A stretch of 64,000 bases of DNA from an uncultured Candidatus Rokubacteria bacterium (GCA_963708025.1 CAVPSB010000014.1:256001-320000); one strand, 5' to 3'. Positions 10,489 to 59,135 are shown, counted from the first letter of the stretch. The notes: generated from the sequence alone by a model not told the origin. Made by a program: numbers and translations.

Positions 10489-10504
10489 CACACCCCTCCT
10501 CGCC

Positions 10505-11725: not shown

Positions 11726-11775
11726 CTTCGTCAGCCCGCGACAACCCAGACAATCCTGTCACCTTCTAGCTCTCG

Positions 11776-12050: not shown

Positions 12051-12051
12051 G

Positions 12052-12843: not shown

Positions 12844-12860
12844 GTCTCCTCCCGCGAGAG

Positions 12861-14705: not shown

Positions 14706-14706
14706 C

Positions 14707-15249: not shown

Positions 15250-15320
15250 GCTGCAATTGTACCCCGCGCGGGGACCGATTAGACTCGGGGGGAACGTCCA
15301 TCCGGTCGAAGGGGGTCAGG

Positions 15321-22391: not shown

Positions 22392-23081
22392 CTACCGCGC
22401 GGCCAGCTCGGCGGGCGTCTTGACCTCGCCCTGCTCGACCCGGCTCAGGTACTCCAGCACCTCGGCCAGCGGGATCACGTCGCCGTACTTCATGTGGATG
22501 TCGAAGAGCGTCACCTTGTGGGAGGTCGCCCCGCGGTCGCACACCGCCTCCTGGGGCACGATGATCCGGTAGTTGTGGTTGAAGGCGTCGAGCACGGTGT
22601 CCCGCACGCAGCCGCTGGTCACGGTCCCGGTGACGATCACCGTGTCCACGCCGTGCCAGATGAGGTAGCTGAGCAGGTTGGTTCCGGCGAAGCCGCTCGG
22701 GAAGGCCTTGACGATGACCGGCTCCTCGGGCAATGGCGCCAGCTCGGGCACGATCTGGTACGCCTCCGGCCGCTCCATGATCGGCGTGTAGACGGCCGCC
22801 GTCTTCCAGCGGCCTCGCTCGACCGCGCGGGTCGTCCGCTCGCCGCGCGTGTGGAAGACCGGGACGCCCCGGGCCCGGGCGGCGCCCAGGAGGGTGCGGA
22901 TCTGGCTCGCGCACTCGCGCGCCCCCGGGCTGGCGAACGGGTACGCCGGGTCCACGAAGGCCGTGTACATGTCGATGACGAGGAGCGCCGGCCGGCGCCC
23001 GAACCCGCCGCGGCCGCCCCAGCCGCCGCGCTCGTAGAGCTCGCGCTCCTCGCGCGGGATGACGTCGTCCCAGATGGCCAT
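22392..23081 (-). CDS. Isochorismatase-family cysteine hydrolase (N-carbamoylsarcosine amidase / maleamate amidase-like)
   Basis: GFGRRPALLVID, KAFPSGF, TSGCVR, LFDIHMKYGDV. Confidence 0.85.
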   Translation of the reverse strand: MAIWDDVIPREERELYERGGWGGRGGFGRRPALLVIDMYTAFVDPAYPFASPGARECASQIRTLLGAARARGVPVFHTRGERTTRAVERGRWKTAAVYTPIMERPEAYQIVPELAPLPEEPVIVKAFPSGFAGTNLLSYLIWHGVDTVIVTGTVTSGCVRDTVLDAFNHNYRIIVPQEAVCDRGATSHKVTLFDIHMKYGDVIPLAEVLEYLSRVEQGEVKTPAELAAR

Positions 23082-23090
23082 GGTCTCCTC

Positions 23091-24692
23091 CTACCGGGTC
23101 AGCTCGACGGTGCGGAACGAGCCGAACCCCAGATTGAGCGGCATCACGTCCAGGCCCTTCACCTTGGGACTCAGCAGGTAGACGAAGCGGGTGTACATGA
23201 TCGGGATCAGCGGGACGTCCTTCACCACGAGCTGGTCGGCCTGCGCGAACAGCGCGGCCCGGCGCGCACGGTCGGGGCTCGCGTTGGCCTGCTCCAGGAG
23301 CGCGTCGAACGCCGGGTTCGCGTAGTTGACCCGGTTGAGCGCCGACTTGCTGTGGAGCCACAGCTCCAGGAAGTAGTTCGGGTCCAGCATGGCCCCGCTC
23401 CAGCCGGTCATGAAGGCCGGGAGCACGTCGCGCTTGTTCATCGCGGCGGTGAAGCTCGCGAACTCCTGGATCTGCACCTCGACGGGCACGCCCAGCGTGT
23501 CCTTCAGCATCGCCGCGATCGGCTCGGCCATCATCCGGTAGTCGGTGGTCACCGGGTTCACGGTGATCGTCAGCGGCGGCAGGCCTCGGCCGCCGGGGAA
23601 GCCGGCCTCGGCGATGAGGTCCCGGGCCCGTGCCGGGTTGTAGTCGAGCCCCTTCAGGTCCTTGTCGTACCCCGGGAACCCCGGCGGCAGCATCCCGCCG
23701 GCCGGGATGTAGAGCCCGTGGAAGACCTGGTTGATCACCTTGGTCCGGTCGATCGCGTGGGCGAAGGCCTGGCGGACCTTGACCTCCTTGAACGGGGCGT
23801 AGACCCGCGGGTTGAGCGCCAGGACCTGGGTCTGGGCTCGGTCCCACTCCCGCATCTCCTTGCTCCAGCGCGGGTCCTTCTTGAGCCGCGGGTAGTCGCC
23901 GAGCGGGACCAGGACGACGTCCAGCTCGCCGTTCTGGTACATGGCCAGCTGGGTGGCGGCCTCCGGCACGATCGGCATCTCGAGCCGGTCCGGCTTCGGC
24001 TTCCCCTCGAAGTACTGGGGGAACGCGTCGTAGACGACCTTCGAGCGGTGCACCCACTCCTTGAGCTTCCAGGGCCCGGTGCCGATCGGATTCGTCTCCG
24101 GCCAGTTCGCCCCGCCCTTCTCGACGGCCTCGCGGGCGATGATCGCCGTCGAGACGTGGGTGAGCCGGGGCAGGAGGTCGCCCTTGGGCGGCGACTGGAG
24201 CCGGATCTCGACCGTCAGCGGGTCCACGACCCGGACGCCGGTCAGCTCCGTCGCCTGGCCCTTGTTCACCTCCTCGAAGCCGGCCACGTCGGCCAGGAGG
24301 AGCCGGGAGCTGGGCGAGCGCGAGTCCGGCGACGCCAGGCGCGTCAACGAGTACTTCACGTCGCTGGCGTCGGCCTTGCGCCCGTTGTGGAAGACCAGGT
24401 TGTCGCGCAGCTTGAAGGTCCAGGTCAGGCCGTCCCGGGAGACCGACCAGCTCTGCGCCGCCAGCGGGACGATCTGGAGCTTGTCGTCGACGCGCACCAG
24501 GGTGGAGTAGACCTGGGCGGTGACGGTGGCCGAGCCGAAGTCGGCCATGCGCTGGGGGTCGATGTGCGGCGGCTCGCCGACGAGCGCCGACCGGAAGACG
24601 ACCGGCGACTGGGCGCCGGGCGGCGGAGCGGCGAGCGCGAGCACGATCGCGGCGGTGAGCGCGGACAGCCCGAGGGCGGTGCCTCGTCGCAT
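23091..24692 (-). CDS. ABC peptide-type substrate-binding protein
   Basis: Signal peptide, HIDP, DGLTWTFKLR, GTGPW, VRQAFAHAIDR. Confidence 0.9.
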   Translation of the reverse strand: MRRGTALGLSALTAAIVLALAAPPPGAQSPVVFRSALVGEPPHIDPQRMADFGSATVTAQVYSTLVRVDDKLQIVPLAAQSWSVSRDGLTWTFKLRDNLVFHNGRKADASDVKYSLTRLASPDSRSPSSRLLLADVAGFEEVNKGQATELTGVRVVDPLTVEIRLQSPPKGDLLPRLTHVSTAIIAREAVEKGGANWPETNPIGTGPWKLKEWVHRSKVVYDAFPQYFEGKPKPDRLEMPIVPEAATQLAMYQNGELDVVLVPLGDYPRLKKDPRWSKEMREWDRAQTQVLALNPRVYAPFKEVKVRQAFAHAIDRTKVINQVFHGLYIPAGGMLPPGFPGYDKDLKGLDYNPARARDLIAEAGFPGGRGLPPLTITVNPVTTDYRMMAEPIAAMLKDTLGVPVEVQIQEFASFTAAMNKRDVLPAFMTGWSGAMLDPNYFLELWLHSKSALNRVNYANPAFDALLEQANASPDRARRAALFAQADQLVVKDVPLIPIMYTRFVYLLSPKVKGLDVMPLNLGFGSFRTVELTR

Positions 24693-24768
24693 GCTGAGCC
24701 TCCGATCGGACGTGAGAGATCGGCGAGACCGGTGTCGGGCCGACGATAGCGTTCCGCCGTGGGGGGTG

Positions 24769-25611
24769 TCAATGGGCGCGGCGGAGGCCGGGGTCCACCG
24801 CCTCGGCCAGCCCCTCGCCGAAGAAGTTGAGGGCGAGGATGGTGACCGAGAGGACGGCGCACGGGATCACCGCCAGGGCCGGGAAGCTCTGGAGGTACTG
24901 GAACGAGTCGGCGATCAGCACGCCCCAGGACGGGATCGGCCGCTGGACCCCGATGCCGAGGAAGGAGAGCGTGGCCTCGGTCAGGATGATCGGGCCGATG
25001 TCGAGCGTCGCGCGGACGACCACCAGGTGCACGGTGTTGCGGAGGAGATGGCGCACCAGGATGCGGCCGGGGCCGGCGCCCTGGGCGACCGCCGCGCTGA
25101 CGAAGTCGCGCGCCTTGAGGCTCAGGACCTCGGCGCGCACCGTCCGCGCCATCGGCGGCCACGTCGCGAGCGTGAGCGCGATCACCACGTTGGCGATGCC
25201 GGGCCCGAGGATGGCCGCCAGCAGGATCGCCAGCAGCAGGGCCGGGAAGGCGAACAGGACGTCGGTCACGCGCATCACCAGCTCGTCCAGCGCGCCGCCC
25301 ACGTAGCCGGCCAGCCCGCCGAGGAGGCCGCCGACGAGCACGGCCGCCAGGACGGTGACCCCGCCCACCAGGAGCGAGAGGCGGCCGCCGTAGGCGAGGC
25401 GGGCCAGGAGGTCCCGGCCGTACTGGTCGGTGCCCAGGGGATGCCGGGGCGACGGGCCCTGGAACGTGCGGTCGAGATCCTGCTGGTCGTAGCGGTAGGG
25501 CAGCAGCCCGGGCAGCGCGACCGCCCCCGCCACCACCCCCACCAGCAGGACGGCGGCGACGACCGCCACCCGATCCCGCCCGAACGCCCGCAGCCCCCGA
25601 CTGCCCGCCAT
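24769..25611 (-). CDS. ABC permease, DppC/OppC family
   Basis: HPLGTDQYGRDLLAR, LSFLGIG, PSWG, GEGLAEAVDP. Confidence 0.9.
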   Translation of the reverse strand: MAGSRGLRAFGRDRVAVVAAVLLVGVVAGAVALPGLLPYRYDQQDLDRTFQGPSPRHPLGTDQYGRDLLARLAYGGRLSLLVGGVTVLAAVLVGGLLGGLAGYVGGALDELVMRVTDVLFAFPALLLAILLAAILGPGIANVVIALTLATWPPMARTVRAEVLSLKARDFVSAAVAQGAGPGRILVRHLLRNTVHLVVVRATLDIGPIILTEATLSFLGIGVQRPIPSWGVLIADSFQYLQSFPALAVIPCAVLSVTILALNFFGEGLAEAVDPGLRRAH

Positions 25612-30118: not shown

Positions 30119-32032
30119 ATGGACGAAGACGAAGAGCCCTCCATACAGCGCCGCCTCGCCGCCATTCTTGCCGCCGATATCGCGGGCTACAGCCGGCTCA
30201 TGCACGAGGACGAGCCCGCCACCGTGCGCGACCTCAAGGCCCATCAGAGCGTGATCCTGCCGCTGGTCGGCCGGCACGGTGGGCGGATCATCGACACCGC
30301 CGGCGATGGCATCATGGCTGAGTTTCCCAGCGTCATAGGCGCCACCGAGTGTGCGGTCGAGATCCAGACCGTGATGGCCGAGCGCAACCTCCGGGTGCCC
30401 GAGAGTCGCCGCATGCGGTTTCGCATCGGGATCAATCTGGGAGATGTGATCCACGACGAGACCCGGATCTACGGTGACGGCATCAACATCGCGGCGCGGC
30501 TGGAAGCACTGGCTCAGCCGGGTGGCGTGCTCGTTTCCAATACCGTCTACGATCAGGTCCGCGGCAAACTGCCGTTCACCTTCGAGGATGTGGGCGAGCG
30601 GCAGGTCAAGAACATCGAGCAGCCCGTGCGAATGTATCAACTCCACATCCCGGGCGCATCCGCCAAGGCCGTGGCCACGCTCGCCAGACGCCCCACCCTA
30701 ACGGACCGCAGGCGTTGGATCGTGTGGGGCCTGGCGGCGTTCCTGGTTCTCCTCGGGGCGGGAGGAGCTTGGTGGATGGGCCCGCCCTTCCTTCCAAGTC
30801 AGCTAGCAGGCAGAACAGAGGCGCCGCGTCTCTCAATCGTCGTGCTGCCCTTTAGCAACCTGAGTGGCGATCCGAGCCAGGAGTACTTCGCCGATGGCAT
30901 AACTGAAGACCTGACAAGTGATCTGTCGCAAATTGCTGGAAGCTTTGTTATCTCCAGGAACACTGCGTTTACACTCAAGGGCAAGGCCGTCGATGTCCGG
31001 CAGATTGGCCGCGAGTTGGGTGTCCGGTATGTGCTCGAGGGGAGCGTACGCCGCATGGGAGGCACTGTCCGCGTCAACGCGCAGCTCATCGACGCGGGCA
31101 CCGGCGCGCATCTGTGGGCCGAACAGATGGACGTCGACCAAAGCACGCTGGCCCTCCAGGGCAACTTCGGCATCGCGAACCGACTTGCAAGGATGCTCAG
31201 TGTTGAACTCGTCAATGTTGAAGGCCGCCGGGCGCAGCGCGCCGACCCGGATGCGGTGGACCTCACCATGCGTGGCTGGTCGGTCTTGAATGGAGGGCCG
31301 AATAAGGAGGATGTGCAGAGGTCCGTCGGGCTGTTCGAGGATGCTCTTCGAATCGATCCCGAGAATAGTCAAGCCAGGGTCGGGCTCGCTCAAGCCCTCA
31401 CTTCCGTCTACCGCAACCGTTGGGATCCCGAACCTGCCAAGGTGCTGGCCCGTGCCGACGAAGCAGCCACGCGGGCCATCGCCGCCGCGCCCAACTATGC
31501 CCAAGCGCATTACGTGAAGGCCGAGGTTCTCGGATTATCCAATCGGTTTGATGCGGCGCTTGCGGCATACGATAGGGTCATCGCCCTCGATCGTAACCAT
31601 GCAGCGGCATACGTTGGACGGGCGCGGAACTTGAATCTGATTGGTCGGGCAGCGGATGCATTGGCGCCCGTCGAGAAGGCGATACGTCTAAGTCCGCGCG
31701 ATCCTGAGCTGTATGTCTGGTATTTCGTCCTCTGCCACGCGAACACGCACTTGGCGCGCGACGCTCAGGCCATCGAATGGTGCCTCAAGTCGCTTGCGAC
31801 CGGTAAGACGTTCTACTTCGCCTACGTCGATCTCGCCTCTGCGTACGCCTGGCGGGGGCAGAACGCAGAGGCGGCGGCCGCGGTCGCGGAGCTCCTGAAG
31901 CTGAGGCCAGGGTTCACGGTGCAGACACTGGTGCAGGAAGGAGCAGGAACTTCCGACAATCCAGCCTTCCGCAAGGAATTCCAACGGATTGTTGAGGGAG
32001 CACGCAAGGCTGGGTTGCCAGAAAACAACTGA
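30119..32032 (+). CDS. Class III adenylate/guanylate cyclase with TM, TolB-like and TPR domains
   Basis: RRLAAILAADIAGYSRLM, AGDG, RIGINLGD, GDGINIAARL; SIVVLPFSNLSGD; TPR helices. Confidence 0.9.
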   Translation: MDEDEEPSIQRRLAAILAADIAGYSRLMHEDEPATVRDLKAHQSVILPLVGRHGGRIIDTAGDGIMAEFPSVIGATECAVEIQTVMAERNLRVPESRRMRFRIGINLGDVIHDETRIYGDGINIAARLEALAQPGGVLVSNTVYDQVRGKLPFTFEDVGERQVKNIEQPVRMYQLHIPGASAKAVATLARRPTLTDRRRWIVWGLAAFLVLLGAGGAWWMGPPFLPSQLAGRTEAPRLSIVVLPFSNLSGDPSQEYFADGITEDLTSDLSQIAGSFVISRNTAFTLKGKAVDVRQIGRELGVRYVLEGSVRRMGGTVRVNAQLIDAGTGAHLWAEQMDVDQSTLALQGNFGIANRLARMLSVELVNVEGRRAQRADPDAVDLTMRGWSVLNGGPNKEDVQRSVGLFEDALRIDPENSQARVGLAQALTSVYRNRWDPEPAKVLARADEAATRAIAAAPNYAQAHYVKAEVLGLSNRFDAALAAYDRVIALDRNHAAAYVGRARNLNLIGRAADALAPVEKAIRLSPRDPELYVWYFVLCHANTHLARDAQAIEWCLKSLATGKTFYFAYVDLASAYAWRGQNAEAAAAVAELLKLRPGFTVQTLVQEGAGTSDNPAFRKEFQRIVEGARKAGLPENN

Positions 32033-32041
32033 CCGCCGGCC

Positions 32042-32540
32042 ATGGCCGAGATCATCGAATTCAGCACAGAACGCCTCCGGCTGCGTCAATGGGCGCCTCA
32101 GGACCGCGAGCCTTTCGCTGCGATGAACGCTGACCCGGAGGTCATGAAGTACTTCGCCAGTGTCGGTACCCGCGAGGGAAGCTTTCGAACCATTGATGTC
32201 TGGCAATCCGAGCTCGAAGAACGCGGTTGGAGCAACTGGGCAGTCGAGCACGTGGAATCGCGCGCGTTCATTGGCTTCGTGGGCTTGTCAGTACCTCGCC
32301 GGGCCTTGCCGTTCATGCCGTGCGTCGAGGTTGGCTGGCGTCTGGCGAGAAGCTATTGGGGCAAGGGTGAGCGGCTCAACCTCGACGAAGTCGTGTCGTT
32401 CACCAGCGTCATCAACTGGCCTTCCCGCGCCGTGATGAAACGAATCGGAATGGTGAATACCAGCGAAGACTTTGATCACCCTGCCCTACCTGAAGGCAGT
32501 GAGCTTCGCCGACACTGCCTCTACAAAATCACGCTCACTG
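32042..32540 (+). pseudogene. RimJ/RimL GNAT acetyltransferase with internal deletion and lost stop
   Basis: TERLRLRQW and VEVGWRL; YWGKG is joined directly to ERLNLDEVVSFT; the frame runs on into unrelated DNA. Confidence 0.65.
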
Positions 32541-32544
32541 CTCG

Positions 32545-32735
32545 TCGCAACTCCGCTCGGTCCGCGAGGCTGGCGGCGTACCAGCCCAGCGCGTCGAACT
32601 CCCCCTCGACGACGATCGCTCGGCGGTACTGTGCGATCGCGTCGCCGGCGACGCTCACGCCGAAGAGGCTGCGGCCCTCGACCTCCCCGCCGAAGCCGAG
32701 GGCGTTGAGCACTGACTTCTCGCCCAGGACGGGCT
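32545..32735 (-). pseudogene. DnaG-like primase (TOPRIM) fragment
   Basis: KSVLN...SLFGVSVAGDAIAQYRRAIVVEGEFDAL follows the DnaG K-x-LN...LFG...IVVEG-x2-D pattern. Confidence 0.55.
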
Positions 32736-32739
32736 TTCA

Positions 32740-33103
32740 GCTCACGGCGGACGCGCCCGAGGAGCGCCGCGCGCACGATCCGCAGCCGATCGAGGGCCGA
32801 GAGCGGCTCGTCGGGCGGTCGTCCCAGCGAGAGCGGGACCACCTGCACGGGGACCCGCTCCAGCCCCAGCTCCTGGGCGATCAGGAACCGGTGCGTTCCG
32901 TCGATCACCCAGCCGTTCCGGAGGATCCGGAGCGGTGTCCGGATCCCGTGCTCGGCGATGTCCTCACGGAGCACGCGCCACTCGTGCGTTTCGTGGAAGT
33001 CGGGAGGCCAGACGAAGCGCGGCTGGTAGAGCGCCAGCGCGGCCAGAGCGCGGGTGTCAGGCGGCAGGGGAGCGGGGAGGCCGAGCAAATCGTGCGACAC
33101 CAC
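32740..33103 (-). pseudogene. ParB/Srx N-terminal domain protein, truncated
   Basis: LREDIAEHGIRTPLRILRNGWVIDGTHRFLIAQELGLERVPVQV; GAGGTGG SD. Confidence 0.65.
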
Positions 33104-33185
33104 GGCAAATGGTCCACCTCGCCTGTCGGGGTGAGGGGACCGAGATCGGTGGACCGCTGGAACCAAGGTCCGTAGACTACATGCC

Positions 33186-48716: not shown

Positions 48717-48957
48717 AAAACCGCTCCCGCAAATCCTCGTCCTCGGCGCGGGGTCTCTGGCCGGTGTTGGGCTGCTGGGTGTCAAGCGTTGTGCAACATT
48801 CAACGACTCGCGCGCAATGGGCGTGGCGGCTGCCAGGAAGGAATCCAGGCGCCTCTCATGGCCGGCGATCGGCGGGGCTCCGTCGAGCGTGGCGCGCGGG
48901 TCGGATGGAATGGATGCCGCATTCCCCGCCGGCGCAGGGCGGGAGGCGGGCGCGCGC

Positions 48958-49251
48958 CTAGTTCAGCGTGACCACGTGGGGGCGGCCCATCTCCTCGATG
49001 AGCGCGACGAGGAGGAGGCGCACCAGCACGGTGGTGGCCGGGCTCGGCGGGCGGGCGTCCGACATCGCGAGGGAGCGGACGATCCGGGTCACGGCCTGGC
49101 GGACCGCCAGCTCGACGGGCGCGGACTCCGCGGTGCCGAACCAGTGGGCCAGGGCCTCGCGGCAGCTCCTGACGCCGTCCTTGACGGCCGCGTTCAGCAC
49201 CGCCACGTCGCCTTCCTGCAGTCCCCTGAGCGCCTCGTCGTCCGGGATCAC
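48958..49251 (-). CDS. Small hypothetical protein
   Basis: GAGGAGGG SD before GTG, high GC3, sigma54 promoter upstream. Confidence 0.55.
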   Translation of the reverse strand: MIPDDEALRGLQEGDVAVLNAAVKDGVRSCREALAHWFGTAESAPVELAVRQAVTRIVRSLAMSDARPPSPATTVLVRLLLVALIEEMGRPHVVTLN

Positions 49252-49300
49252 GTCATTTCCCTCCTCTGTGCTTCGAACCCGCCGTACGCCGACCCAGACG

Positions 49301-49316
49301 AGCAAGGGGTGTGCCA
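49301..49316 (-). promoter_or_regulatory. sigma54 (-24/-12) promoter
   Basis: TGGCAC-ACCCC-TTGCT on the minus strand, matching the consensus spacing. Confidence 0.7.
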
Positions 49317-49447
49317 CGGCGACCACCCGGGCTCTAACTTCACGTCACGACGACGCGATCCGGCCGTCCACCCGCCGGTGAACGGTGAGGCCGGCCCACG
49401 GCCGTCCAGAGTCTGACCAGTCGCCTGGACCGTCTTTGCACAGGTCC

Positions 49448-49843
49448 TCAGCGTCCGGCGCTGGAGCCGGCACGATAGGCCCGCCAGCCGCCGTGGGCGG
49501 AGATGTCCCGGTGGAGGCCCTCGGCCAGCTCGCGCGGGTAGAGGATGCCCGGGACCTCCCGGCCGTCGGCGAGGCGGATCGGCCCCCGATACAGCCCGGG
49601 CGGCTCGCCGGCCTCGACGCGCCGCCACACCTCGTCGGGCACCCGGTAGAGCTCGCCGGCCACCGACACGCCGCCCGAGGCCACCTCGAACATGCCGGGG
49701 TGGCGGTCGTCGATGGAGTAGAGGCGGTAGACCGGCGCCGTCCACGCCTCGCCCAGGAACTCGGCCCCCTCGAGGTTGGCGTGGAGCGCGAGCCCGCGCA
49801 TGAGGGTGCCGTTGACGAAGAGCTCGGACGCCCCGCCGGTCAG
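49448..49843 (-). CDS. Gamma-glutamylcyclotransferase-like / allophanate hydrolase C-terminal-like domain protein
   Basis: LFVNGTLMRGLALH, TAPVYRLY, GELY, EPPGL, DISAHGGWRAY; start uncertain (CTG overlapping the upstream TGA). Confidence 0.75.
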   Translation of the reverse strand: MTGGASELFVNGTLMRGLALHANLEGAEFLGEAWTAPVYRLYSIDDRHPGMFEVASGGVSVAGELYRVPDEVWRRVEAGEPPGLYRGPIRLADGREVPGILYPRELAEGLHRDISAHGGWRAYRAGSSAGR

Positions 49844-51417
49844 CGGCGGCCCAGCGGCGGCGCGGCCGCCGGAACCGGTTTCCCGGCCGGCTCCAGCCGG
49901 GCGAAGCCCCAGCAGATGGCCGCCAGCAGCAGGTAGCCGAGGGCGACCCCCGCCGACTCTCCGATCCCCAGCTTGGCGCCGTGGATGAAGCCGAAGTAAG
50001 ACAGCACGGCGCCAGCCAGCCCGTAGATGGCGGCGCGATTGAAGTCCCGGTCGATGATGAAGGCGGCCACCGCGCCCAGGATCATGCCGGCCAGGATCGC
50101 CCCGCCGCCGAGGAGCTCCATGCCGTGGTAGACGACCCCGGCTCCGCCGAGGGCGGCCAGGCCCACCTTGGCGGCCGAGGTGCCGGCGGCGTTCAGCGCG
50201 CCGTCCACCTGGGTCTGGGCCCAGGACGCGAGGTTGGGGATCAGGGCCAGGATGACCGCCGGCGCGTGCTCGCGCGGCGTGGCCTGGAAGGCCTGGGCGC
50301 CGATCACCACGCCGATGTAGAGGAGGATGGGCAGGATCGCCACCAGGGGGATCACGGCCAGGAGCAGGGCGACCAGGCCCAGGAAGCACACCAGCCCGAC
50401 GCAGACCCCGGTCGCCAGCGAGTAGCCGATCCGCCCGCCGACCGACTTCCAGCCGGGGTGGCCGATGTAGACGGCGGGCGGGAAGGGGCTGCCGAGGAGG
50501 GAGCCGACCACCGCGCCGATGCCGTCGGCGAGGAGGATCTTCCGCAGGCTGTAGCTGTCCCCGGCCGCCTCCGCGCTCTCGACGTTGTTCATGCCCTCGG
50601 TGAAGTTGTAGATGCCGAGCGGGATCGCGGTGACCAGGAGGGGGCCGATGTCGGCAAGCCCCGCGAAGACGTCGGCGGACGGGTAGGGCAGCCGCAGGCC
50701 GGCCTGGGCGATGGCCTTGCCGACCGCGGTCGCCTGCATGACGCCGCTCCAGCCGAGCAGCGTGGTGATCCAACCGACGGCGGTGCCGATGATGACCGCG
50801 GCGAGGCCGCCGGGCACGTTGCCGGGGAGCCGCACGCCGGCCATCCAGCTCACCATGATGATGGCGAGCGAGATGAAGGCGATCCACGGCACCTCCCAGC
50901 TCTGGAAGGCCGGCCGCATCGAGATGAAGGTGATCGAGATGCCGGCCAGCGTCCCCAGCATGGCCGCCCGCGGGGTGTGCTTGCGGATGGCCGGCCCCAC
51001 GAAGGCGCCGAGGAGGATGATGACGCCGATCACGAAGCACCAGGCGAGCCCGGCCTGCCAGGCGGCCACGGGGTTGCCGGTCCTGATGACGATGGGCAGC
51101 ATGATGAGGAACACCACGATGAACATGTGGGGCACGCTCGGCCCGTACGGCATCGCGGTGACGGTGTCGCGACGCTCGCGCTTGGCGAGCTGCCAGGCCA
51201 GGTACGCGTAGTAGAGGTTGCCGAGCGGCAGCGCGATGCCCAGCGCCGGGATGATGCGGCCGAACACGATGTTGTCGGGCAGCTTGACGACCCCGAGCAC
51301 GAGCCCCGTGAGCACGATGACGTTGAGGACGACGTTGGTGAAGAGCCCGAAGAAGGCGTTCCAGTCGCCGGGCACCCACCACCGGACCGGATACTCCGAG
51401 TCAGTCGCGCGCCCCAT
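49840..51417 (-). CDS. NCS2/AzgA-like nucleobase-type permease
   Basis: GDWNAFFGL, TAMPYG, NNVESAEAAGD, VYIGHPGWK; many TM segments; GGAGGAG SD. Confidence 0.85.
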   Translation of the reverse strand: MGRATDSEYPVRWWVPGDWNAFFGLFTNVVLNVIVLTGLVLGVVKLPDNIVFGRIIPALGIALPLGNLYYAYLAWQLAKRERRDTVTAMPYGPSVPHMFIVVFLIMLPIVIRTGNPVAAWQAGLAWCFVIGVIILLGAFVGPAIRKHTPRAAMLGTLAGISITFISMRPAFQSWEVPWIAFISLAIIMVSWMAGVRLPGNVPGGLAAVIIGTAVGWITTLLGWSGVMQATAVGKAIAQAGLRLPYPSADVFAGLADIGPLLVTAIPLGIYNFTEGMNNVESAEAAGDSYSLRKILLADGIGAVVGSLLGSPFPPAVYIGHPGWKSVGGRIGYSLATGVCVGLVCFLGLVALLLAVIPLVAILPILLYIGVVIGAQAFQATPREHAPAVILALIPNLASWAQTQVDGALNAAGTSAAKVGLAALGGAGVVYHGMELLGGGAILAGMILGAVAAFIIDRDFNRAAIYGLAGAVLSYFGFIHGAKLGIGESAGVALGYLLLAAICWGFARLEPAGKPVPAAAPPLGRR

Positions 51418-51443
51418 GGTCTCCTCCCGTGTTGAGGCTCCGG

Positions 51444-52142
51444 TCACCGCTTGGCTGCCTTCTTCTTCTTCTCTTTCGCTCCGCCCAGCGCCTCGAGGAA
51501 CCGCCGGGAGTCCGAGACCCAGCCGAAGATGCCGCCCTGGGCCTTGATCATCTCGAGGGCGGCCTCCTGGAACTTCGGGAAGTAGGACCCGACGCAGTCC
51601 GAGAGCACCAGACAGTCGTAGCCGCGGTCGTTGGCCTCCCGGACGGTCGTCTGGACGCAGACCTCGGTCGTCACGCCGCACACGACGAGCTGGCGGACGC
51701 CGCGATTCTTCAAGATGGCGTCGAGGTCGGTGGCGTAGAAGGCGCCCTTCCCCGGCTTGTCCACCACGGGCTCCCCGGGGATCGGGGCCAGCTCCTTGAC
51801 GATGTCGTGTCCGTACTCGCCGCGCACCAGGATGCGGCCCATCGGCCCCTTGTCGCCGATGCCGGTTTTGAGTCGGCCGCGCGCCTTCTTGGCCGGCGGG
51901 CAGTCGGCCAGGTCCGGCCGGTGGCCCTCGCGGGTGTGGAGGACGAGGAGCCCGGCCTGCCGCGCCGCCTCGAGCACACGCCGGGCCGGGGGCACCGCCT
52001 TGCGAAGGAGCGACACGTCGTTGCCCAGCGCTTCGCCGAACCCGCCGGGGTCCACGAAGTCGCGCTGGAAGTCGATCATGACCAGCGCGGCCGTCTTCGG
52101 CGTGAACTCGAACTCGTAGGGCTCCGCCTCGACCGTTGCCAT
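51444..52142 (-). CDS. trtA: Isochorismatase-family hydrolase, triuret hydrolase (TrtA)-type
   Basis: [21 protein letters not shown] and [26 protein letters not shown] and QGGIFG match TrtA-type rather than BiuH-type residues as recalled. Confidence 0.75.
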
Positions 52143-52154
52143 GCGACCCTCCCG

Positions 52155-53090
52155 TCAGGGCACGACGTGCGTGCCGGTCTTGCCCGCCACGGCGGCTTCC
52201 AGGTGCTCGGGCGAGCTGATGACGACTTCGCGGCCGCCGCGCTCGAGGAAGTCGATCGCGGCCTGCATCTTGGGACCCATGCTCCCCGGCGGGAACTCGC
52301 CCGCCTCCAGGTAGCGCCGCGCCTCGGCGGCGGTCAGCCGGTCGAGGAAGGTCTGGCCTGGCTGGCGGAAGCGGATCGCGACCTTCTCGACCCCGGTCGC
52401 CAGGACCAGCACCGGCACGCCGAGCTGGGCGGCCAGGAGCGCGGAGGCGTGGTCCTTGTCCACCACGGCCTCGACCCCCCGGTAGACGCCCGGCTCGTCC
52501 TCGACCACCGGGATGCCGCCGCCCCCGCACGCGATCACGACGAAGCCGGCGTCCAGGAGCGTCCGGATGGCGTCGGCCTCGACGATGCGGAGGGGCCGCG
52601 GGGACGGAACGACGCGGCGGTAGCCCCGGCCGGCGTCCTCGACCATGACCCAGCCGTCGCGCGCCTGGTGGCTCCGCGCCTCCTCCCCGGTGAAGAACGG
52701 GCCGATCGGCTTCCGCGGGCTCGCGAACGCGGGATCGTCCCGGTCGACGACGGTCTGGGTCAGGAGGCAGCTCACGCGGTTGGCGTGGCCCCGACGTCCG
52801 AGCTCGGCGAGGAGGGAGTTCCCGATGATGTAGCCGAGCCCGCCCTGGGAGTCGGCCACGCACATGTCGAGGGACAGCCGCGGCGCGTGCCGGTCGTCCG
52901 AGGCCAGCTCGGAGCGGAGGAGGATGAAGCCGACCTGGGGGCCGTTCCCGTGGGTGACGACGACCCGCCAGCCGGCCTCGACCAGCCCGCCGATCCGCCG
53001 GGCGGTCCCCCGCGCGTTCTCGAACTGCTCGGCGATCGTCCCCCGCTGGCCGTCCTGGATCAGGGCGTTGCCGCCGATCGCGATCATCAC
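52155..53090 (-). CDS. arcC: Carbamate kinase
   Basis: AIGGNAL, THGNGPQVG, KPIGPF, GYRRVVPSP, GGGGIP, VDKD, GSMGPK. Confidence 0.93.
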   Translation of the reverse strand: MMIAIGGNALIQDGQRGTIAEQFENARGTARRIGGLVEAGWRVVVTHGNGPQVGFILLRSELASDDRHAPRLSLDMCVADSQGGLGYIIGNSLLAELGRRGHANRVSCLLTQTVVDRDDPAFASPRKPIGPFFTGEEARSHQARDGWVMVEDAGRGYRRVVPSPRPLRIVEADAIRTLLDAGFVVIACGGGGIPVVEDEPGVYRGVEAVVDKDHASALLAAQLGVPVLVLATGVEKVAIRFRQPGQTFLDRLTAAEARRYLEAGEFPPGSMGPKMQAAIDFLERGGREVVISSPEHLEAAVAGKTGTHVVP

Positions 53091-54540
53091 CGCGCGGGAT
53101 CATCGGCCGTGGATCGCCACCCGACGCCGAGCCGCCGCCCGAGGTCGCGGAGCGCCGCCGTCGAAACAGGGGAGGGGCGCCCGCGCGATGCCGGCGCCGA
53201 CCTGGCCGATGCCGGGCTCGCGGTGGGCGATGCCCGTGTTGATCACCGGGGCCACCCCGCTCTCGACGACCCGGCGGACGTCGATGCCGGTCGGCGACCC
53301 GGCGAAGCCGAGGGTCGGGATCCCGTACTCCGCGTTCCGCCCGAGCGTGATCCCGTACATCGCCCGGGTATAGGCGAGGGCGTCGGCCGGCGTGCCGCCG
53401 ACGAAGTGGACGATCGCCGGCGCTCCCGCCATCGCGAAGCCGCCGATCCCCGCCGTCTCGGTGATGGCGCTGTCGCCGAGGTCGGGGTTGGCGTCGGCCG
53501 GACCGTAGCCCGGGAAGTAGAGGCCATCGATGACCGGCGCCGGCGCGGTGAACCAGGCGTCCCCGGCGCCGGACACGCGGATCCCGAAGTCGACGCCGTT
53601 CCGGGCCATCGCGGTCACCAGCGGTCGAGCCCGCGACCCCGTGGGCGGCGTCGAGCGACGCCTTGCAGGCGGCCATCGAGAGGTTGAGGAAGAAGTGGTT
53701 GTTGCCGAGGATGAAGTCGAAGACCGCGGCCGCCGTGGGGCCGTCCACCGCGCGGGCGAGCGCCGGCGCGAGGGTCCGGGCGAAGAGGGAGGTGGCCGCG
53801 ACGTTCCGGTTGTGGCACTCGTCGCCCATCTGCAGGGCCTGGGCCACGTGGAGCTTCAGGTCGATCGGCCCCGTGCGGAGGGCGTCCCGGAGCGCGGGGC
53901 CGAGAGTGCCGGCGATCCACCGCAGGCGCTCGAGCACCTCGGCGTCGTAGGCGCCGAAGCGGAGGGCGCGGCCGAGCCCCTCGTTCAGGGTCGCGAAGGC
54001 GCGGTTCCCGTGGCTCGCGTTCTCGACGACGACGACGGGCATCGACGGCGACAGGATGCCGGCCATCGGGCCCACCGCGCCGTGGTGGTGGCAGGGCGCG
54101 AAGCGGATCCGGCCGGAGGCCACCAGCGCGGTGGCGGCCTCGGGGTCGGGAGCCCAGCCCTCGTAGAGGATCGCGCCGATGATGGCGCCGCGCACGGGGC
54201 CGCACATGCGGGCCCACTCGATGGGCGGGCCGGCGTGGAGGATCATGCGGTCCTCGAGGCCGGGGACGACCTCGGCGGCGGGGCGGACGTCGAGCAGTAT
54301 CGGGCGGGCCCCGAGGAGCCGGGCCATCGCGGTCCGGTTGGCCTCGGCCACCCGGGCGCCCACGGAATCGTCGGGATCGTCCTCGAGGCGCGCCAGGAGC
54401 AGCCCGAGGTCCCGGTCGCCACCGGCAGGCGGCCGCCAGTCGAGCTGGACGACGGTGGCGCCGTGGGCGCGGGGCGGCTCGGCGAACTGGGCGAGCCCGA
54501 CGTTCAGCGCGTGGACGCCGTCGGGGAAGACGTCAGCCAC
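53087..54540 (-). CDS. DUF1116 protein (YlbE/AllG-like), frameshifts near 53620 and 53155
   Basis: LHAGPP, PCHHHGAVGPMAG, MGDECHNRN, FFLNL, MARNG, DLGDSAITET, INTGIAH. Confidence 0.88.
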
Positions 54541-56041
54541 GGCGGGCGCCGGCCTCGCGGGCGACGAGCGCGGCCAGGCGCGCGGCCTCGGCGTTCGACG
54601 GCAGGAGGACGACGCCGGCGGCGGCGAGCCTCGTCTCCTGACGCGCCAGGCCCTGGGGATCGCCCGCCGCCCCGCAGACGGAGCCGATCAGCACGGCGCG
54701 CCCCTCCACCCGCTCGAGGGCCGGGGCGAGGGCGCCGGCCGGGTCCGGGTGGCTGCCGTAGCCGAGGACGACGTCGAGCAGGATGACCGCGGTGGCGGGA
54801 TCCTCGGCGGCGGCCGCGATGTGCTCGTTGCGGAGTCGGAAGTCGATCATCGGGTGCGGCCGGCCGACGGTGAACTCGTCGTCCCCCAGGTCGAGGAGCG
54901 TGTGGCCGGCGCCGTGACCGGGGAGCAGGTCGCCGACGATCAGCGCGGCCTCCTTGGCGAGCGTGCCGCCGCTGTAGAGTCCGCGGATCGCCCAGCGGCC
55001 GGGAGCGAGCCGGCTCACCAGGTCGCGCGCCCGGGCGGCGAGCGCGGCCGCGTCGTCGCTCCCGGCGGCGCCGGCCGGCCGGCCGCCGGCCAGGCCGACG
55101 GCGAAGTCGGCGGCCTCAGCGAGCGTCGCCGCCGGAGTGGCGCCGCGCCGCCGGATCGCCGCCGGGTCACCGCCGAGGAAGCAGACAACCGTCGGCTTGC
55201 CCCCCGCCACCGCGCGGTCGAGGACCTCCGCCGCCACGTCGGGAGCCGGCGGCTTGGAGACGAGCGCCAGGACGAGCGTGTCCGGGTCCGCGATCAGCCA
55301 CTCGATGCCGGCCAGCATCATGAGACCGCCGACCCGCTCGTCCAGGTCGCGGCCGCCGACGCCGATCACCTGGGAGACGCCCTCGCCCCAGCGGTCGATC
55401 AGACAGCTGACCTGCTGGAGGCCGGTGCCCGAGGCGCCGACGAGGCCGATGCGTCCCCGCCGCACGGCGTTCGCGAAGCCGAGCGGCACGCCGTCCAGGA
55501 TCGCGGTGCCGCAGTCGGGGCCCATCACGAGCCGGCGCTTCCGCACCGCCAGCCGCTTCAGCTCGATCTCGTCCTCGACGGGGACGTTGTCGCTGAAGAG
55601 GAAGACGTGGAGGCCGCGCTTGAGGGCCTTGAGCGCCTCGGCGGTGGCGTAGGCTCCCGGGGTGGAGACGATCGCCAGGTTGGCGCCGGGCGCCTCGGCC
55701 AGCGCCGCGGCGATCGTGGCGGGCGGCGTCCGCTCGGCGGCGACGCCCGCGCTCGGGGCGGCCGCGGTCAGCCGAGCGGCGGCGTCGGCCAGGGCCGCCT
55801 CCGCCGCCTCGGCGCTCGCGGCGGCGACCGCGATGACGAGGTCGGCCGGGCCCGCCGCGGCCGCCTCGTCGGCGAGGAGCCCGGCCTTGGCCAGGAGGTC
55901 GCGGTTGGCCGGGGTCGCCATGAGCAGCGCTGCCCGCCGCACGTCCGGGCGCTGCTCCACCTCGGCCGCGACGCGCATGAGGTCGACCGAGTCGCGGTAG
56001 GTGTCCCGGAGCACGTGGGCGCGCAGGACCTCGTCCGCCAT
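54533..56041 (-). CDS. fdrA: FdrA (acyl-CoA synthetase-like; AllF-like)
   Basis: YRDSVDLM, MATPAN, FSDNV, MGPDCGT, GASGTG, GLYSGGTL, DLGDDEFTVGRPHPMID, DVVLGYG. Confidence 0.9.
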   Translation of the reverse strand: MADEVLRAHVLRDTYRDSVDLMRVAAEVEQRPDVRRAALLMATPANRDLLAKAGLLADEAAAAGPADLVIAVAAASAEAAEAALADAAARLTAAAPSAGVAAERTPPATIAAALAEAPGANLAIVSTPGAYATAEALKALKRGLHVFLFSDNVPVEDEIELKRLAVRKRRLVMGPDCGTAILDGVPLGFANAVRRGRIGLVGASGTGLQQVSCLIDRWGEGVSQVIGVGGRDLDERVGGLMMLAGIEWLIADPDTLVLALVSKPPAPDVAAEVLDRAVAGGKPTVVCFLGGDPAAIRRRGATPAATLAEAADFAVGLAGGRPAGAAGSDDAAALAARARDLVSRLAPGRWAIRGLYSGGTLAKEAALIVGDLLPGHGAGHTLLDLGDDEFTVGRPHPMIDFRLRNEHIAAAAEDPATAVILLDVVLGYGSHPDPAGALAPALERVEGRAVLIGSVCGAAGDPQGLARQETRLAAAGVVLLPSNAEAARLAALVAREAGARRG

Positions 56042-56106
56042 CGCACCTCCCCGGGAGAGACGACCCGACCACCGGCGGGCATGGCCACAGCCGTCGAACC
56101 GGCCCG

Positions 56107-56191
56107 ACTCTACGCCCGCCCATCCGGGACCGTCAAGCCACTCCTCGGACAGCTGGCATTCCTTGACCGGGCTGGCTTCGCGCGATAGCCT
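56107..56191. promoter_or_regulatory. Divergent sigma70-type promoters
   Basis: Minus strand TTGACG-N18-TAGAGT (56136-56107); plus strand TTGACC-N17-TAGCCT (56163-56191). Confidence 0.5.
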
Positions 56192-56199
56192 CGGCCGGG

Positions 56200-57150
56200 A
56201 TGGCACGCCTGGCGCTGCCCGAGGTGGACCGGGTCGAGATCCTCACCCTGCTCGACCTCTCGCTGGATCTTCTCATGGCCGGGAGCGAGACGGTGCGGCG
56301 GGTGGTGGTGGAGGGGACGCTGGGGGAGGGCCGCTCGGTGCTCCGCGCGGAGCACGGCTTCTCGAGCCTGGTGACCGTGGTGGCCGGAGAGCGGAAGGCG
56401 TCCTTCCTCTTCGACGCGGGCCTGACACGGGACAGCCTGCTGCACAACATGGACGTCCTGGAGGTGCGGCCGAACGAGCTCCAGGCGATCGTGCTGAGCC
56501 ACGGGCACGCCGACCACGTGGCCGGGCTCATGGGGCTGCTCTCCCGGACCGGACGCCGCCGGCTCCCGCTGGTGCTGCATCCCGACGCGTTCCTCCGCCG
56601 GAAGATCGCGCTGCCCGACGGCCGCGAGGTCCTCCTGCCGCCGCCGGATCGCCGCGGCATCGAGCAGGAAGGCGTCGAGATCCTAGAGGAGCGGGCCGCC
56701 TCGCTCCTGCTCGGCGGCCTCGCGCTGGTCACGGGCGAGGTCGCCCGGACGACCGCGTTCGAGACCGGCTTCCCGGCGCACTACGCGGAGGTGGAGGGCG
56801 CCTGGCGGCCCGACCCGCTGATCCACGACGATCAGGCCGTGGTGCTGAACGTCCGCGGCAAGGGCCTGGTGGTGCTCTCCGGCTGCGGTCATGCCGGGAT
56901 CGTCAACGTCGTCCACCACGCGATGGCCGTGACGGGGGTCGAGCGGGTCCACGGGGTCCTGGGCGGCTTCCACCTGACCGGCCGGCTCTTCGAGCCGCGG
57001 ATCGCGGCGACGGTCGAGGCGTTGCAGGCGCTCGCGCCGAAGCTGATCGTCCCGTCGCACTGCACGGGCTGGAAGGCCACCCACGAGATCGCCCGCGCCC
57101 TCCCCGACGCCTTCGTCCCCAACAGCGTCGGCACCACCTTCCTGATCTGA
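56200..57150 (+). CDS. MBL-fold metallo-hydrolase
   Basis: AEHGFS, LFDAG, LSHGHADH, SGCGHAG, GGFHL, PSHCTG. Confidence 0.88.
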   Translation: MARLALPEVDRVEILTLLDLSLDLLMAGSETVRRVVVEGTLGEGRSVLRAEHGFSSLVTVVAGERKASFLFDAGLTRDSLLHNMDVLEVRPNELQAIVLSHGHADHVAGLMGLLSRTGRRRLPLVLHPDAFLRRKIALPDGREVLLPPPDRRGIEQEGVEILEERAASLLLGGLALVTGEVARTTAFETGFPAHYAEVEGAWRPDPLIHDDQAVVLNVRGKGLVVLSGCGHAGIVNVVHHAMAVTGVERVHGVLGGFHLTGRLFEPRIAATVEALQALAPKLIVPSHCTGWKATHEIARALPDAFVPNSVGTTFLI

Positions 57151-57161
57151 TCCCACACTCC

Positions 57162-57199
57162 GCTCCCTCTCCCTTCCAGGGAGAGGGTCGGGGTGAGGG
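57162..57199. repeat. BoxC-like element between convergent genes
   Basis: gctccctctcccttccagggagagggtcggggtgaggg. Confidence 0.7.
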
Positions 57200-57202
57200 C
57201 CC

Positions 57203-59036
57203 CTATCGCCGCTTCGCCAGGATCTGGATCTCCAGCGGCGCCAGCGAGACCCGCACCGAGCGCGGGTCGCCGCGCGACGACGCGGTGCCGGGCGCGGTCG
57301 GCCCCGGCCGGTTGGCGTACAGCACCTCGAAGGCGGCGCCAGCGGGGGTGAGATCGCGATCGACGACGACGTGGAGCGCCCGCTCCTCCGTGGTGTGCGT
57401 GTTGGCCGCGACGAGCAGCTCGCGGTCGTGGAGGATCCGCGAGAAGGCGAGGACCCCGCCGGGCGTCGCCGAGATGCCGAAGTCGGCGCCGTTCCCGGAG
57501 ACGGGGCGGAAGTACTGCCGCCCGTAGCGCAGGGCGGGCTCGGCCTGCCGGAGCCGTACGAGCGTCTGGACCGCCTGGTAGAAGGGGTGCGCCGGGTCGA
57601 AGGCCCCCGGCTTGCCCCACAGCGCCTCCCGCGCCGCCTCGCGACGGTTCCCCGCACCGTGGAGACCCTGCTCGGTGCCGTAGTAGAGGCAGGGGATTCC
57701 CTGCAGCGCGAAGAGGCAGCCCGAGCGCCAGCGTGAGCTGGTCGTCCCAGCGGTGCGGGTCGCCGGGCGGGCTCCAGTAGAAGCGGTTGTCGAGGTCGTG
57801 GTTGTCGAGGAAGGTGACGAAGTACCGGCCGGCCTCGCCGTGGGAGGCGAGCAGGTGCCGCGCTGCGCCGCCCGGCGGGCGGCGAACATCGCGTCGAGGG
57901 CGGCTGGGCGCGCCGCTCCCCTTGATCACCTCGGTGAGGCGGGTGAACAGCGGAAAGTCCAGCGCGGCGTCGATCCCGATCAGGCTCGCTCGTCCTTCTC
58001 GGTGTTGCGGCCGATGAACCGCGCGATCTTCGCCTCGTCGTCGACTCCAGACCTCGCCGAAGGTGAAGAAGTTGGTCTTGCCGAGGCTCAGGGCGAACTC
58101 CCGGATGGCGTCGCCGAACGTGCGGGCGAAGTCCTGCTCCACGTACTTCAGCGTATCGATGCGGAAGCCGTCCACGTCGAACTTCGCGATCAGGTACTGG
58201 TGGGCGCGGATCAAGAGCTCGCGCACCGGGAACCGGCCGTCCGCCCGGTACTCGGTGACGATCTCCTTGAGCGACCCGAAGTCGCCGCACGGTCTCCGGC
58301 GCGCCCTTCCCCTCGCGCCCGCGCCGGCGCCAGTAGTCGTTGCGCTGGAGCTCCTCCGGCCACACGACGCCTTCGGGTGGACGGGGCGCCGGGATCGTCG
58401 CGGCCTCCGGCCACGCCGGCACGCCTCTGGCCGGTCGCGTCCCGCCAGCGCACGTCATACTCCCGGCCGCCGCCCTTCCAGGGGGCCTCGGCCCCGTGGC
58501 TCACGTAGTCGAAGACGTCACCGGCGTGGTTGATCACGACGTCGAGGATCACGTGGAGGCCGTGGGCGTGGGCGGCGTCCACCAGCCGGCGCAGCTCGTC
58601 GTCGCCGATCCGCGGGTCGATCCGGGCGGCAGCCGGGTCGGAGGTGAAGCGGGGCTCGACCCGGAGGAAGTCCTGGATCCCGTAGCCGTGATAGCTGTCG
58701 GCCTTCCACTGGCAGTTCTTCAGGACCGGCGACAGCCAGAGCGCGCCGACGCCGAGGTCCGCCAGGTACGGCAGGCGCCGGCGCACGCCGTTCGAGTGTG
58801 CCGCCCTGGAAGACCCGTGATCGCCCGTCCCACGGCGCGAAGCGGGGCGCCGCCGCCGGGTTGTCGAAGCGGTCCACCAGCACGAAGTAGATCCAGCGGT
58901 CGCGCCAGTCGCCGGGCGAGGGGAACGGGGTGGCGATGCGCACGCCCGTCCCGCCGATGGGCACCAGACGCTCGCGGGGGATGGCGGCCTCGCGCAGGAC
59001 CGCGTTGACATCCGGGCCAAAGACGGCGTTCGGCAT
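57203..59036 (-). CDS. Alpha-amylase family (GH13) glycosidase, several frameshifts
   Basis: IYFVLVDRF, SYHGY, LDVVINH, DGFRIDT, GEVW, FLDNHD and GIPCLYYGTEQ spread over shifting frames. Confidence 0.85.
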
Positions 59037-59135
59037 GGCCTGTTCTCCTTCGCGCTGGGCCGGCCAGCCCGAGTCTACACCACCCGGGGACGCCTCGGCG
59101 GCGATGCGGTAAGATCGCCGGGCGGAGGAGGGAGC

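Follow-up and report, generated by a model that had tools for sequence, protein, structure and literature searches.

Organization of the operon

A stretch of 64,000 nucleotides from an uncultured Candidatus Rokubacteria bacterium (GCA_963708025.1, CAVPSB010000014.1:256001-320000), referred to here as the window, contains a minus-strand operon in which a gene for a putative triuret hydrolase of the TrtA type lies with genes for FdrA-type transcarbamylase subunits and a carbamate kinase. Positions are given as coordinates of the window, which has a G+C content of about 72%. The operon spans 49448-56041 and contains six co-directional genes, read from 56041 to 49448. These encode FdrA, an AllG-like protein with a DUF1116 domain, a carbamate kinase, an isochorismatase-like cysteine hydrolase, a permease, and a stand-alone domain resembling the C-terminal domain of allophanate hydrolase, AH_C (Table 1). 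An earlier note, made from the sequence by a model, had described six tightly packed minus-strand genes. This description is borne out by the periodicity of G+C at third codon positions, by frame-state segmentation, and by matches in Pfam and NCBIfam. The spacing between the genes ranges from an 8-nucleotide overlap up to 24 nucleotides.

A sigma-70-like promoter match lies upstream of fdrA. It is the only promoter-like site in the 7.6 kb from 48800 to 56400, where 0.1 were expected from shuffled sequences. A divergent gene for a metallo-beta-lactamase-fold protein is found upstream of this match. There were no Rfam matches at gathering thresholds across the whole window. An open frame of 1566 codons runs across four of the genes in the wrong frame and masks a frameshift in the allG-like gene in simple lists of open reading frames (ORFs). 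This long frame is an artefact of the high G+C content.

Table 1. Features of the operon and of the remainder of the window.
Feature	Position	Strand	Remarks
Sigma-70-like promoter match	56107..56136	-	About 65 nucleotides upstream of the fdrA start codon; consensus match only
fdrA (AllF/YahF-like subunit, succinyl-CoA-synthetase-alpha fold), 502 amino acids	54533..56041	-	NF004760, 459 bits (cut-off 433); PF00549 and PF02629
allG-like DUF1116 gene	53100..54540	-	PF06545; +1 frameshift near 53622, possible second near 53165
Carbamate kinase, 311 amino acids	52155..53090	-	NF009007, 383.9 bits (cut-off 266)
TrtA-type isochorismatase-like cysteine hydrolase, 232 amino acids	51444..52142	-	PF00857, 164 bits
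Permease, 525 amino acids, membrane protein	49840..51417	-	Without family match; predicted 7+7 inverted-repeat (UraA/SLC26) fold
Stand-alone AH_C (GGCT-like) domain, about 131 amino acids	49448..49843	-	PF21986, 114 bits; start codon uncertain
1566-codon open frame	49840..54540	-	Artefact of high G+C
Second isochorismatase-family hydrolase gene	22392..23090	-	
SBP_bac_5 ATP-binding cassette (ABC) transporter binding protein	23091..24866	-	
Lower G+C patch	30119..33175	+	About 63% G+C
Amylase-like region	57196..59037	-	Coding signal changes frame

The isochorismatase-like hydrolase

Judged by its sequence, the hydrolase is of the TrtA type and not of the BiuH type. Its matches in the Protein Data Bank (PDB) include TrtA (6XIX, 286 bits) and the BiuH proteins of Rhodococcus (6XJM, 262 bits) and Rhizobium (6AZO, 240 bits). 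Against the BiuH equivalog NF050097 it scores 290.5 bits, which is under the curated cut-off of 370. It can be aligned to TrtA (6XIX) over 209 residues with no gap, and its residue numbers are the same as in the TrtA paper. About 60% of the residues are identical to those of the assayed TrtA (125 of 209, counted by hand from the alignment), and the catalytic triad D24/K129/C162 is present. In the TrtA paper, F35, N41, A134, E160, Y187, and I205 are given as the consensus differences between TrtA and BiuH, and Q202 as a key residue (PMC7948467). The hydrolase has the TrtA residue at all six positions and also Q202, whereas the Rhizobium BiuH has Y, Y, S, D, T, and V at the six. The motifs that the earlier note had quoted in favor of TrtA were all found in the translation.

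The same residue pattern was used to type 100 hydrolases, made up of the one in the window, those of the related loci described below, and reference records. The TrtA pattern was found in 81 and the BiuH pattern in 18. All of the residues that TrtA uses for triuret in its first and second shells are conserved in every one of the 81 clade members, if A or S at position 134 and I or L at position 205 are allowed. In a tree, the 81 TrtA-type rows were split from the BiuH-type rows with a value of 100 in the Shimodaira-Hasegawa-like approximate likelihood ratio test (SH-aLRT). The hydrolase of the window fell in the TrtA-type clade and the crystallised Rhizobium BiuH on the BiuH-type side, the tree being anchored by the Rhizobium pRL10 homologue and by PDB bit scores, with the Herbaspirillum TrtA sequence not among its rows. 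In pRL10, the crystallised BiuH adjoins atzD and a second hydrolase adjoins a cupin. The alignment and tree, which the earlier note had offered as a check, agree with its typing. In addition, the hydrolase keeps 96 of the 96 columns that are at least 95% conserved in homologues.

The product of TrtA is described as 1-carboxybiuret, a compound whose decay to biuret has a half-life of about 20 min (PMC7948467). From these likenesses, we infer triuret activity for the hydrolase of the window as well. A RutB-like pyrimidine enzyme was considered as its identity and rejected, with RutB matches of 127-130 bits against 286 bits for TrtA.

No BiuH-type hydrolase was found in the 64-kb window. The second isochorismatase-family gene was tried as a BiuH candidate and rejected, since it scores 54 bits against the NF050097 cut-off of 370. 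This gene is distant from both BiuH (54 bits) and RutB (50 bits), and it adjoins the gene for the SBP_bac_5 binding protein.

Transcarbamylase subunits and carbamate kinase

The fdrA gene is intact. The best PDB match of its product is E. coli FdrA (3DMY, 263 bits), and the protein is 43% identical to YahF and 40% identical to AllF of E. coli K-12. In a tree of 27 rows, the 24 hydrolase-linked FdrA proteins formed one group (SH-aLRT 88) to the exclusion of K-12 AllF and YahF, although two outgroups are too few for a family-wide clade claim. Binding between FdrA and AllG has been demonstrated for the E. coli proteins.

The DUF1116 gene that the earlier note had listed does carry a PF06545 domain, but it is not one open frame. 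The PF06545 profile is divided, with its positions 1-158 and 166-215 matched in different frames. Alignment with intact homologues places one extra base near 53622, between ...GVAGST and LVTAMARNG.... Programmed frameshifting was considered for this gene, whose homologues are single open frames. The last 25 or so residues resemble the tails of homologues in the third frame only (score up to 30 versus 16-17), which weakly supports a possible second frameshift near 53165. The first 50 or so amino acids of AllG have their counterpart at the C-terminus of AllF in E. coli, an architecture like that of YahG. The frameshift may make the AllG of this genome inactive. AllH (PF11392/DUF2877) was found neither by its family hidden Markov model (HMM) nor by tblastn in the 64-kb window.

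The carbamate kinase is 50% identical to YahI and 37% identical to AllK/YbcF. Its score against the arcC equivalog TIGR00746 is 345.5 bits, under the cut-off of 358.25.

The permease and the AH_C domain

The permease had been named as a member of NCS2, and this name could not be sustained. There was no Pfam or NCBIfam match even at E<=1, and no match in a PDB sequence search. The nearest Atlas clusters are unnamed, and among those with a name PF00860 comes closest, at only 0.90. A model built with AlphaFold (AF2) from 50 sequences, with a predicted local distance difference test (pLDDT) score of 88.8, was compared through Foldseek and matched SLC26Dg, SVCT1, UraA, AZG1, and UapA (E about 1e-7, template modeling (TM) score 0.45-0.60). 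In its predicted structure, the permease has the 7+7 inverted-repeat fold of the UraA/SVCT/AzgA/SLC26 kind. This fold is common to SulP/SLC26 and SLC4 proteins and is therefore no proof of NCS2 membership. The permease keeps 76 of 76 columns that are at least 95% conserved in homologues, one of which is labeled 'regulator' by the NCBI pipeline. It had a tblastn match in 69 of the 80 hydrolase loci described below, mostly directly adjoining the hydrolase. The permease is thus a candidate transporter of triuret or a related ureide.

The best PDB match of the AH_C domain is the stand-alone protein 5C5Z (88 bits), and all 33 of 33 columns at least 95% conserved in homologues are kept. Its homologues begin 3-5 residues ahead of the conserved LFVNGTLMRGL strand. 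No ATG, GTG, or TTG was found upstream of this first strand, and the sole option is a CTG overlapping the permease stop codon. The domain is a separate protein, and no amidase-signature domain (PF01425) of the AtzF type was found in the 64-kb window. The C-terminal domain of allophanate hydrolase is said, in work by Fan et al. from 2013, to process N-carboxycarbamate. The absence of BiuH, of an amidase-type AtzF, and of AllH/DUF2877 that the earlier note had remarked on thus holds for the 64-kb window, as does that of allantoin genes among the window ORFs scanned.

Gene neighborhoods in other genomes

A genome scan gave 80 loci from many phyla with a hydrolase 67-85% identical to that of the window. 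Close relatives of the hydrolase number in the thousands, and the best 120 of 8000 scored at least 80% identity. The 80 loci were surveyed by tblastn, by ORF clustering with Pfam, and by the AllH HMM. FdrA was found in 24 of them, AllG in 26, both together in 21, carbamate kinase in 22, and AllH in 19. The other routes were represented by a BiuH-type second hydrolase (16 loci), an AtzF/AtzE-type amidase (24), Cupin_7 (9), and AtzH/AtzG (6). The loci with both FdrA and AllG belong to five phyla (Chloroflexota, Actinomycetota, Verrucomicrobiota, Methylomirabilota, and Pseudomonadota) and have at least six different gene orders. The order seen in the window is common to L010, L014, L022, L025, and L030, which add a PucR-type regulator and AllH upstream of FdrA. 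Several of the loci with FdrA and AllG that have no close stand-alone AH_C carry a full AtzF in its stead.

AllH accompanies FdrA and AllG in 16 of the 21 loci. It is missing nearby in L002, L006, L008, L028, and L062, all of which keep an intact AllG. The earlier note had raised the possibility of a two-subunit transcarbamylase. The idea is not supported by these counts, by the presence of AllH in an E. coli island described below, or by the report that allFG alone gave 7% of wild-type oxamate production in E. coli, where all three genes are needed (PMC11326118).

A subset of 46 loci has at least 6 kb on both sides of the hydrolase. FdrA and AllG occur together in 15 of these, with carbamate kinase in 15/15 and AllH in 13/15. 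A BiuH-type paralogue was found in 0/15, as compared with 10/31 of the other well-flanked loci, and a close stand-alone AH_C in 8/15 as compared with 2/31. The co-occurrence of FdrA, AllG, and the kinase with the hydrolase is therefore kept in other genomes, as the earlier note had expected; its further expectation that BiuH would be lacking holds in these 15 loci and fails in some others, which are taken up below. On the hydrolase tree, the linkage shows only 3 state changes, giving just 2-3 independent contrasts. The conservation evidence is thus one of persistence through divergence and rearrangement, rather than of many independent gains. A single alignment column (V/L56) distinguishes 28 FdrA/AllG-linked hydrolases from 28 unlinked ones. 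The unlinked hydrolases adjoin BiuH-type paralogues and a cupin, as in Rhizobium pRL10, or AtzF/AtzE/AtzG/AtzH. Neither the window ORFs that were scanned nor the 51 ORF clusters most widespread in the loci included an allantoin family, a ureidoglycolate dehydrogenase, or a family that forms oxalurate.

Two other kinds of gene were observed in these neighborhoods. A Cupin_7 gene follows the hydrolases in pRL10 (L085 11401-12415) and is also present in L032, L038, L044, L048, L052, L058, L059, L076, and L078. It is found in 0/15 of the well-flanked loci with FdrA and AllG, and it is probably the carboxybiuret decarboxylase called TrtB in the literature. DUF1116/AllG-like genes lie beside a TrtA-type hydrolase in L029 (2193-3488), L053 (154-1350), and L070 (8563-9954). 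These are 42-52% identical to the gene of the window, and the sequence fetched for each locus shows no FdrA match. Only L070 reaches the full 10 kb in each direction; L029 and L053 end early at contig ends. The three genes may represent an AllG paralogue that works without FdrA.

The module in Escherichia coli

A search of plasmids by tblastn gave 286 records, 78 of them from E. coli, with many of those listed coming from poultry. On the E. coli plasmid NZ_CP127318.1 (L081), a seven-gene block of 7.2 kb lies at 8995-16205. The record is annotated in the order cysteine hydrolase, DUF2877, fdrA, DUF1116, arcC, hypothetical protein, cytosine permease (CodB-like), and LysR, and the hypothetical protein is AH_C. 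The hydrolase is 67% identical to that of the window and is of the TrtA type. Of 5426 complete E. coli genomes, 1560 (about 29%) carry this 7.2-kb block, at 1502 chromosomal and 127 plasmid places. In E. coli, this is a third FdrA-type module besides allFGHK and yahEFG-yahI. The chromosomal version appears as 'GR 29' in a report on a poultry E. coli genome, where it is read as pyrimidine degradation (PMC12928451, 2026).

The island has the same six catalytic genes as the module, and AH_C is likewise stand-alone. It differs from the operon of the window in having an NCS1-type permease, a LysR regulator, and intact AllH and AllG.

Comparison with known systems

The fold, the triad, the six discriminating residues, and Q202 of the hydrolase are the same as those of TrtA from Herbaspirillum sp. 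BH-1 (6XIX). The trtA genes described so far lie with biuH and atzF (PMC7948467), whereas that of the window lies with fdrA, allG, and a kinase gene and has no biuH.

In E. coli, AllF, AllG, and AllH are reported to form the oxamic transcarbamylase, which phosphorolyses oxalurate and works with the catabolic carbamate kinase AllK (PMC11326118). The window has homologous FdrA and DUF1116 genes that adjoin a carbamate kinase gene. By analogy, the chemistry is presumed to be alike, with phosphorolysis of an N-carbamoyl group giving carbamoyl phosphate and then ATP. The differences are that FdrA and the kinase are only 40% and 37% identical to AllF and AllK, that the order in relatives is H-F-G-K, and that the C-terminal segment of AllF sits on AllG in the window, as it does in YahG. 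Neither allantoin genes nor AllH were found in the window, and a TrtA-type hydrolase stands in place of the step that forms oxalurate.

The K-12 yahE-yahF-yahG-yahI cluster has the same architecture and order (DUF2877, an FdrA-like protein, a long DUF1116 protein, and carbamate kinase), and it provides the best K-12 identities for both FdrA (43%) and the kinase (50%). Unlike the operon, it has no TrtA-type hydrolase, AH_C, or permease of this kind. The cluster provides no functional anchor.

Carboxybiuret is otherwise consumed by a decarboxylase together with BiuH or by a deaminase route. The TrtB decarboxylase, BiuH, and AtzF route of Rhizobium and Herbaspirillum and the AtzEG, AtzH, and AtzF route of Pseudomonas sp. 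ADP would share the 1-carboxybiuret intermediate with the pathway proposed here. Enzymes of both routes are found beside the same type of hydrolase and permease in other loci. These routes are hydrolytic or decarboxylating and conserve no energy; in the operon, a transcarbamoylase and a kinase would replace them.

A proposed phosphorolytic pathway

The operon can possibly provide for the uptake and breakdown of a small poly-ureide, triuret being the likeliest, with a phosphorolytic fate of 1-carboxybiuret that yields carbamoyl phosphate and ATP. We consider the chances of this reading to be about even. The UraA-fold permease would bring the substrate into the cell. The TrtA-type hydrolase would then remove one terminal amide nitrogen to give 1-carboxybiuret, as shown for the Herbaspirillum TrtA. 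1-Carboxybiuret can be regarded as an aza-homologue of oxalurate. A complex of FdrA and AllG, with AllH where present, could use phosphate to split off the terminal carbamoyl group, giving carbamoyl phosphate and allophanate. This step is modeled on the conversion of oxalurate and phosphate to oxamate and carbamoyl phosphate. Carbamate kinase would transfer the phosphate to ADP, yielding ATP and carbamate. The remaining N-carboxylated product would be handled by AH_C, or by a full AtzF in other loci. Loci with AtzF would finish allophanate hydrolytically. Where AH_C occurs without AtzF, as it does in the window and the E. coli island, another means of allophanate disposal would be needed, possibly a second phosphorolysis that gives carbamoyl phosphate and carbamate.

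This route would be a third alternative to the decarboxylase with BiuH and to AtzEG with AtzH. The presence of the same hydrolase beside known carboxybiuret-consuming enzymes elsewhere fits such a third, phosphorolytic fate of the product. More specifically, the TrtA-linked FdrA/AllG/AllH complex might be a 1-carboxybiuret (perhaps allophanate):phosphate carbamoyltransferase that, with the kinase, provides one and possibly two ATP per triuret, with AH_C as a dedicated enzyme and the permease as the first triuret transporter. This full set of assignments is tentative, and its chances are somewhat under even. With the exception of the two-subunit idea, the comparative evidence strengthens the phosphorolytic reading, which is plausible.

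Several observations weigh against the pathway. The operon of the window has a frameshifted AllG and an AH_C with no canonical start, and AllH is missing from the window, so this copy may be impaired. The module is not always a replacement for BiuH, since L075 holds both a BiuH-type gene and an FdrA-like gene, and comammox contigs are reported to hold trtA, biuH, atzF, and allFGHK together (PMC12625717). The Fisher p-values obtained for the survey (0.019 and 0.0008) are inflated because the loci share ancestry. In a contrast test of whether FdrA and AllG exclude BiuH, there were 2-3 independent pairs, which puts significance out of reach, and the exclusivity is not independently established. 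The role of AH_C is also left unaccounted for by the scheme.

Alternative explanations

The phosphorolytic branch could be a recently disabled remnant in this genome, with one or more real frameshifts in AllG and the loss of AllH, so that only the hydrolase and permease still work. This is the strongest of the alternatives, and we regard it as unlikely, although it deserves weight. The clear frameshift in AllG and the possible second one would fit, as would the failure to find AllH in 64 kb and the lack of a canonical start in AH_C. In the position upstream of FdrA that PucR and AllH occupy in the syntenic loci, the window has the divergent metallo-beta-lactamase-fold gene. The neighboring amylase-like region also changes frame repeatedly, and in the E. 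coli system all three subunits are reported to be needed (PMC11326118). However, the proteins do not look degraded. When read through the break, AllG keeps 102 of the 103 columns that are at least 95% conserved in homologues, FdrA keeps 75 of 77 (23 homologues), and the kinase keeps 71 of 73, rates no lower than those of the homologues. Since the conserved columns are kept this well, the inactivation, including the lesions in allG and AH_C, would have to be very recent, or the insertions and deletions are assembly errors. In addition, the five related loci that also have no nearby AllH keep an intact AllG.

Two neighboring but separate pathways could be encoded, namely a hydrolytic breakdown of triuret and a canonical transcarbamylase of the allantoin branch acting on imported oxalurate. 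The co-location in comammox and archaeal metagenome-assembled genomes (MAGs) has been read in this way in the literature (PMC12625717). FdrA is also above the cut-off of its FdrA subfamily, and AllG matches the AllG Pfam family. This explanation appears improbable, though. The survey of the window ORFs and of the most widespread clusters gave no genes that form oxalurate or belong to allantoin breakdown, and none of the 15 well-flanked loci has the BiuH needed for a hydrolytic continuation. The linkage has outlasted many rearrangements of gene order. FdrA and the kinase are also rather distant from AllF and AllK, and the subunit architecture is like that of YahF/YahG.

The hydrolase could also act on another amide or ureide, such as a RutB-like pyrimidine ureide or an amide that yields oxalurate, and pass its product to the transcarbamoylase with no triuret involved. 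This has a similarly small chance of being correct. The pyrimidine reading of the E. coli island was drawn from similarity to RutB and CodB (PMC12928451), the hydrolase shares only about 60% of its residues with the assayed TrtA, and PucR-type regulators adjoin five syntenic loci. Against it, the RutB scores are far lower than those of TrtA and BiuH, the triuret-contact shells are kept throughout the TrtA clade, and the same hydrolase has carboxybiuret and allophanate enzymes as partners elsewhere. The phosphorolytic breakdown of 1-carboxybiuret is the preferred reading.

Other features of the window

In the amylase-like region, which lies two genes from the operon, the coding signal moves between frames about six times over 1.8 kb, with weak matches to the alpha-amylase family in overlapping ORFs. 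The region could be a glycoside-hydrolase-like pseudogene in decay or a stretch where the sequence is poor, local decay and local sequence error both being possible. An adenylate/guanylate-cyclase-TPR protein and a GNAT acetyltransferase are encoded in the patch of lower G+C (about 63% as compared to 72%), which is possibly acquired DNA.

Significance

To our knowledge, the routes known for triuret and biuret breakdown are hydrolytic only. Catabolic pathways that make ATP through a transcarbamoylase and a carbamate kinase are few and exist for arginine, agmatine, and oxalurate. The co-location itself is already in print, as trtA and biuH have been found beside allFGHK in comammox and archaeal MAGs and were treated there as two pathways, as far as the available text shows (PMC12625717). 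We found no published proposal of carboxybiuret phosphorolysis, a statement that excepts the supplemental results and figures S12 and S15 of that paper, which concern allFGHK beside trtA. Both the mechanism and the wide distribution of the module appear to be novel.

Urea fertiliser is reported to bring very large amounts of triuret and biuret into soils as impurities, and both compounds also arise when uric acid is oxidised (PMC7948467). If the pathway is true, it would add a new substrate class to ATP-making transcarbamoylase/carbamate-kinase catabolism and would provide a substrate-level-phosphorylation route for urea oligomers and the oxidation products of uric acid. The hypothesis is directly testable because E. 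coli carries the module. A second lineage of the FdrA/DUF1116/DUF2877 enzyme, itself a recent discovery, would gain a function, as would an uncharacterised accessory island of E. coli, and a permease family that has no annotation would have a candidate substrate. The pathway would then be widespread in soil and freshwater phyla and would occur in about 29% of complete E. coli genomes.

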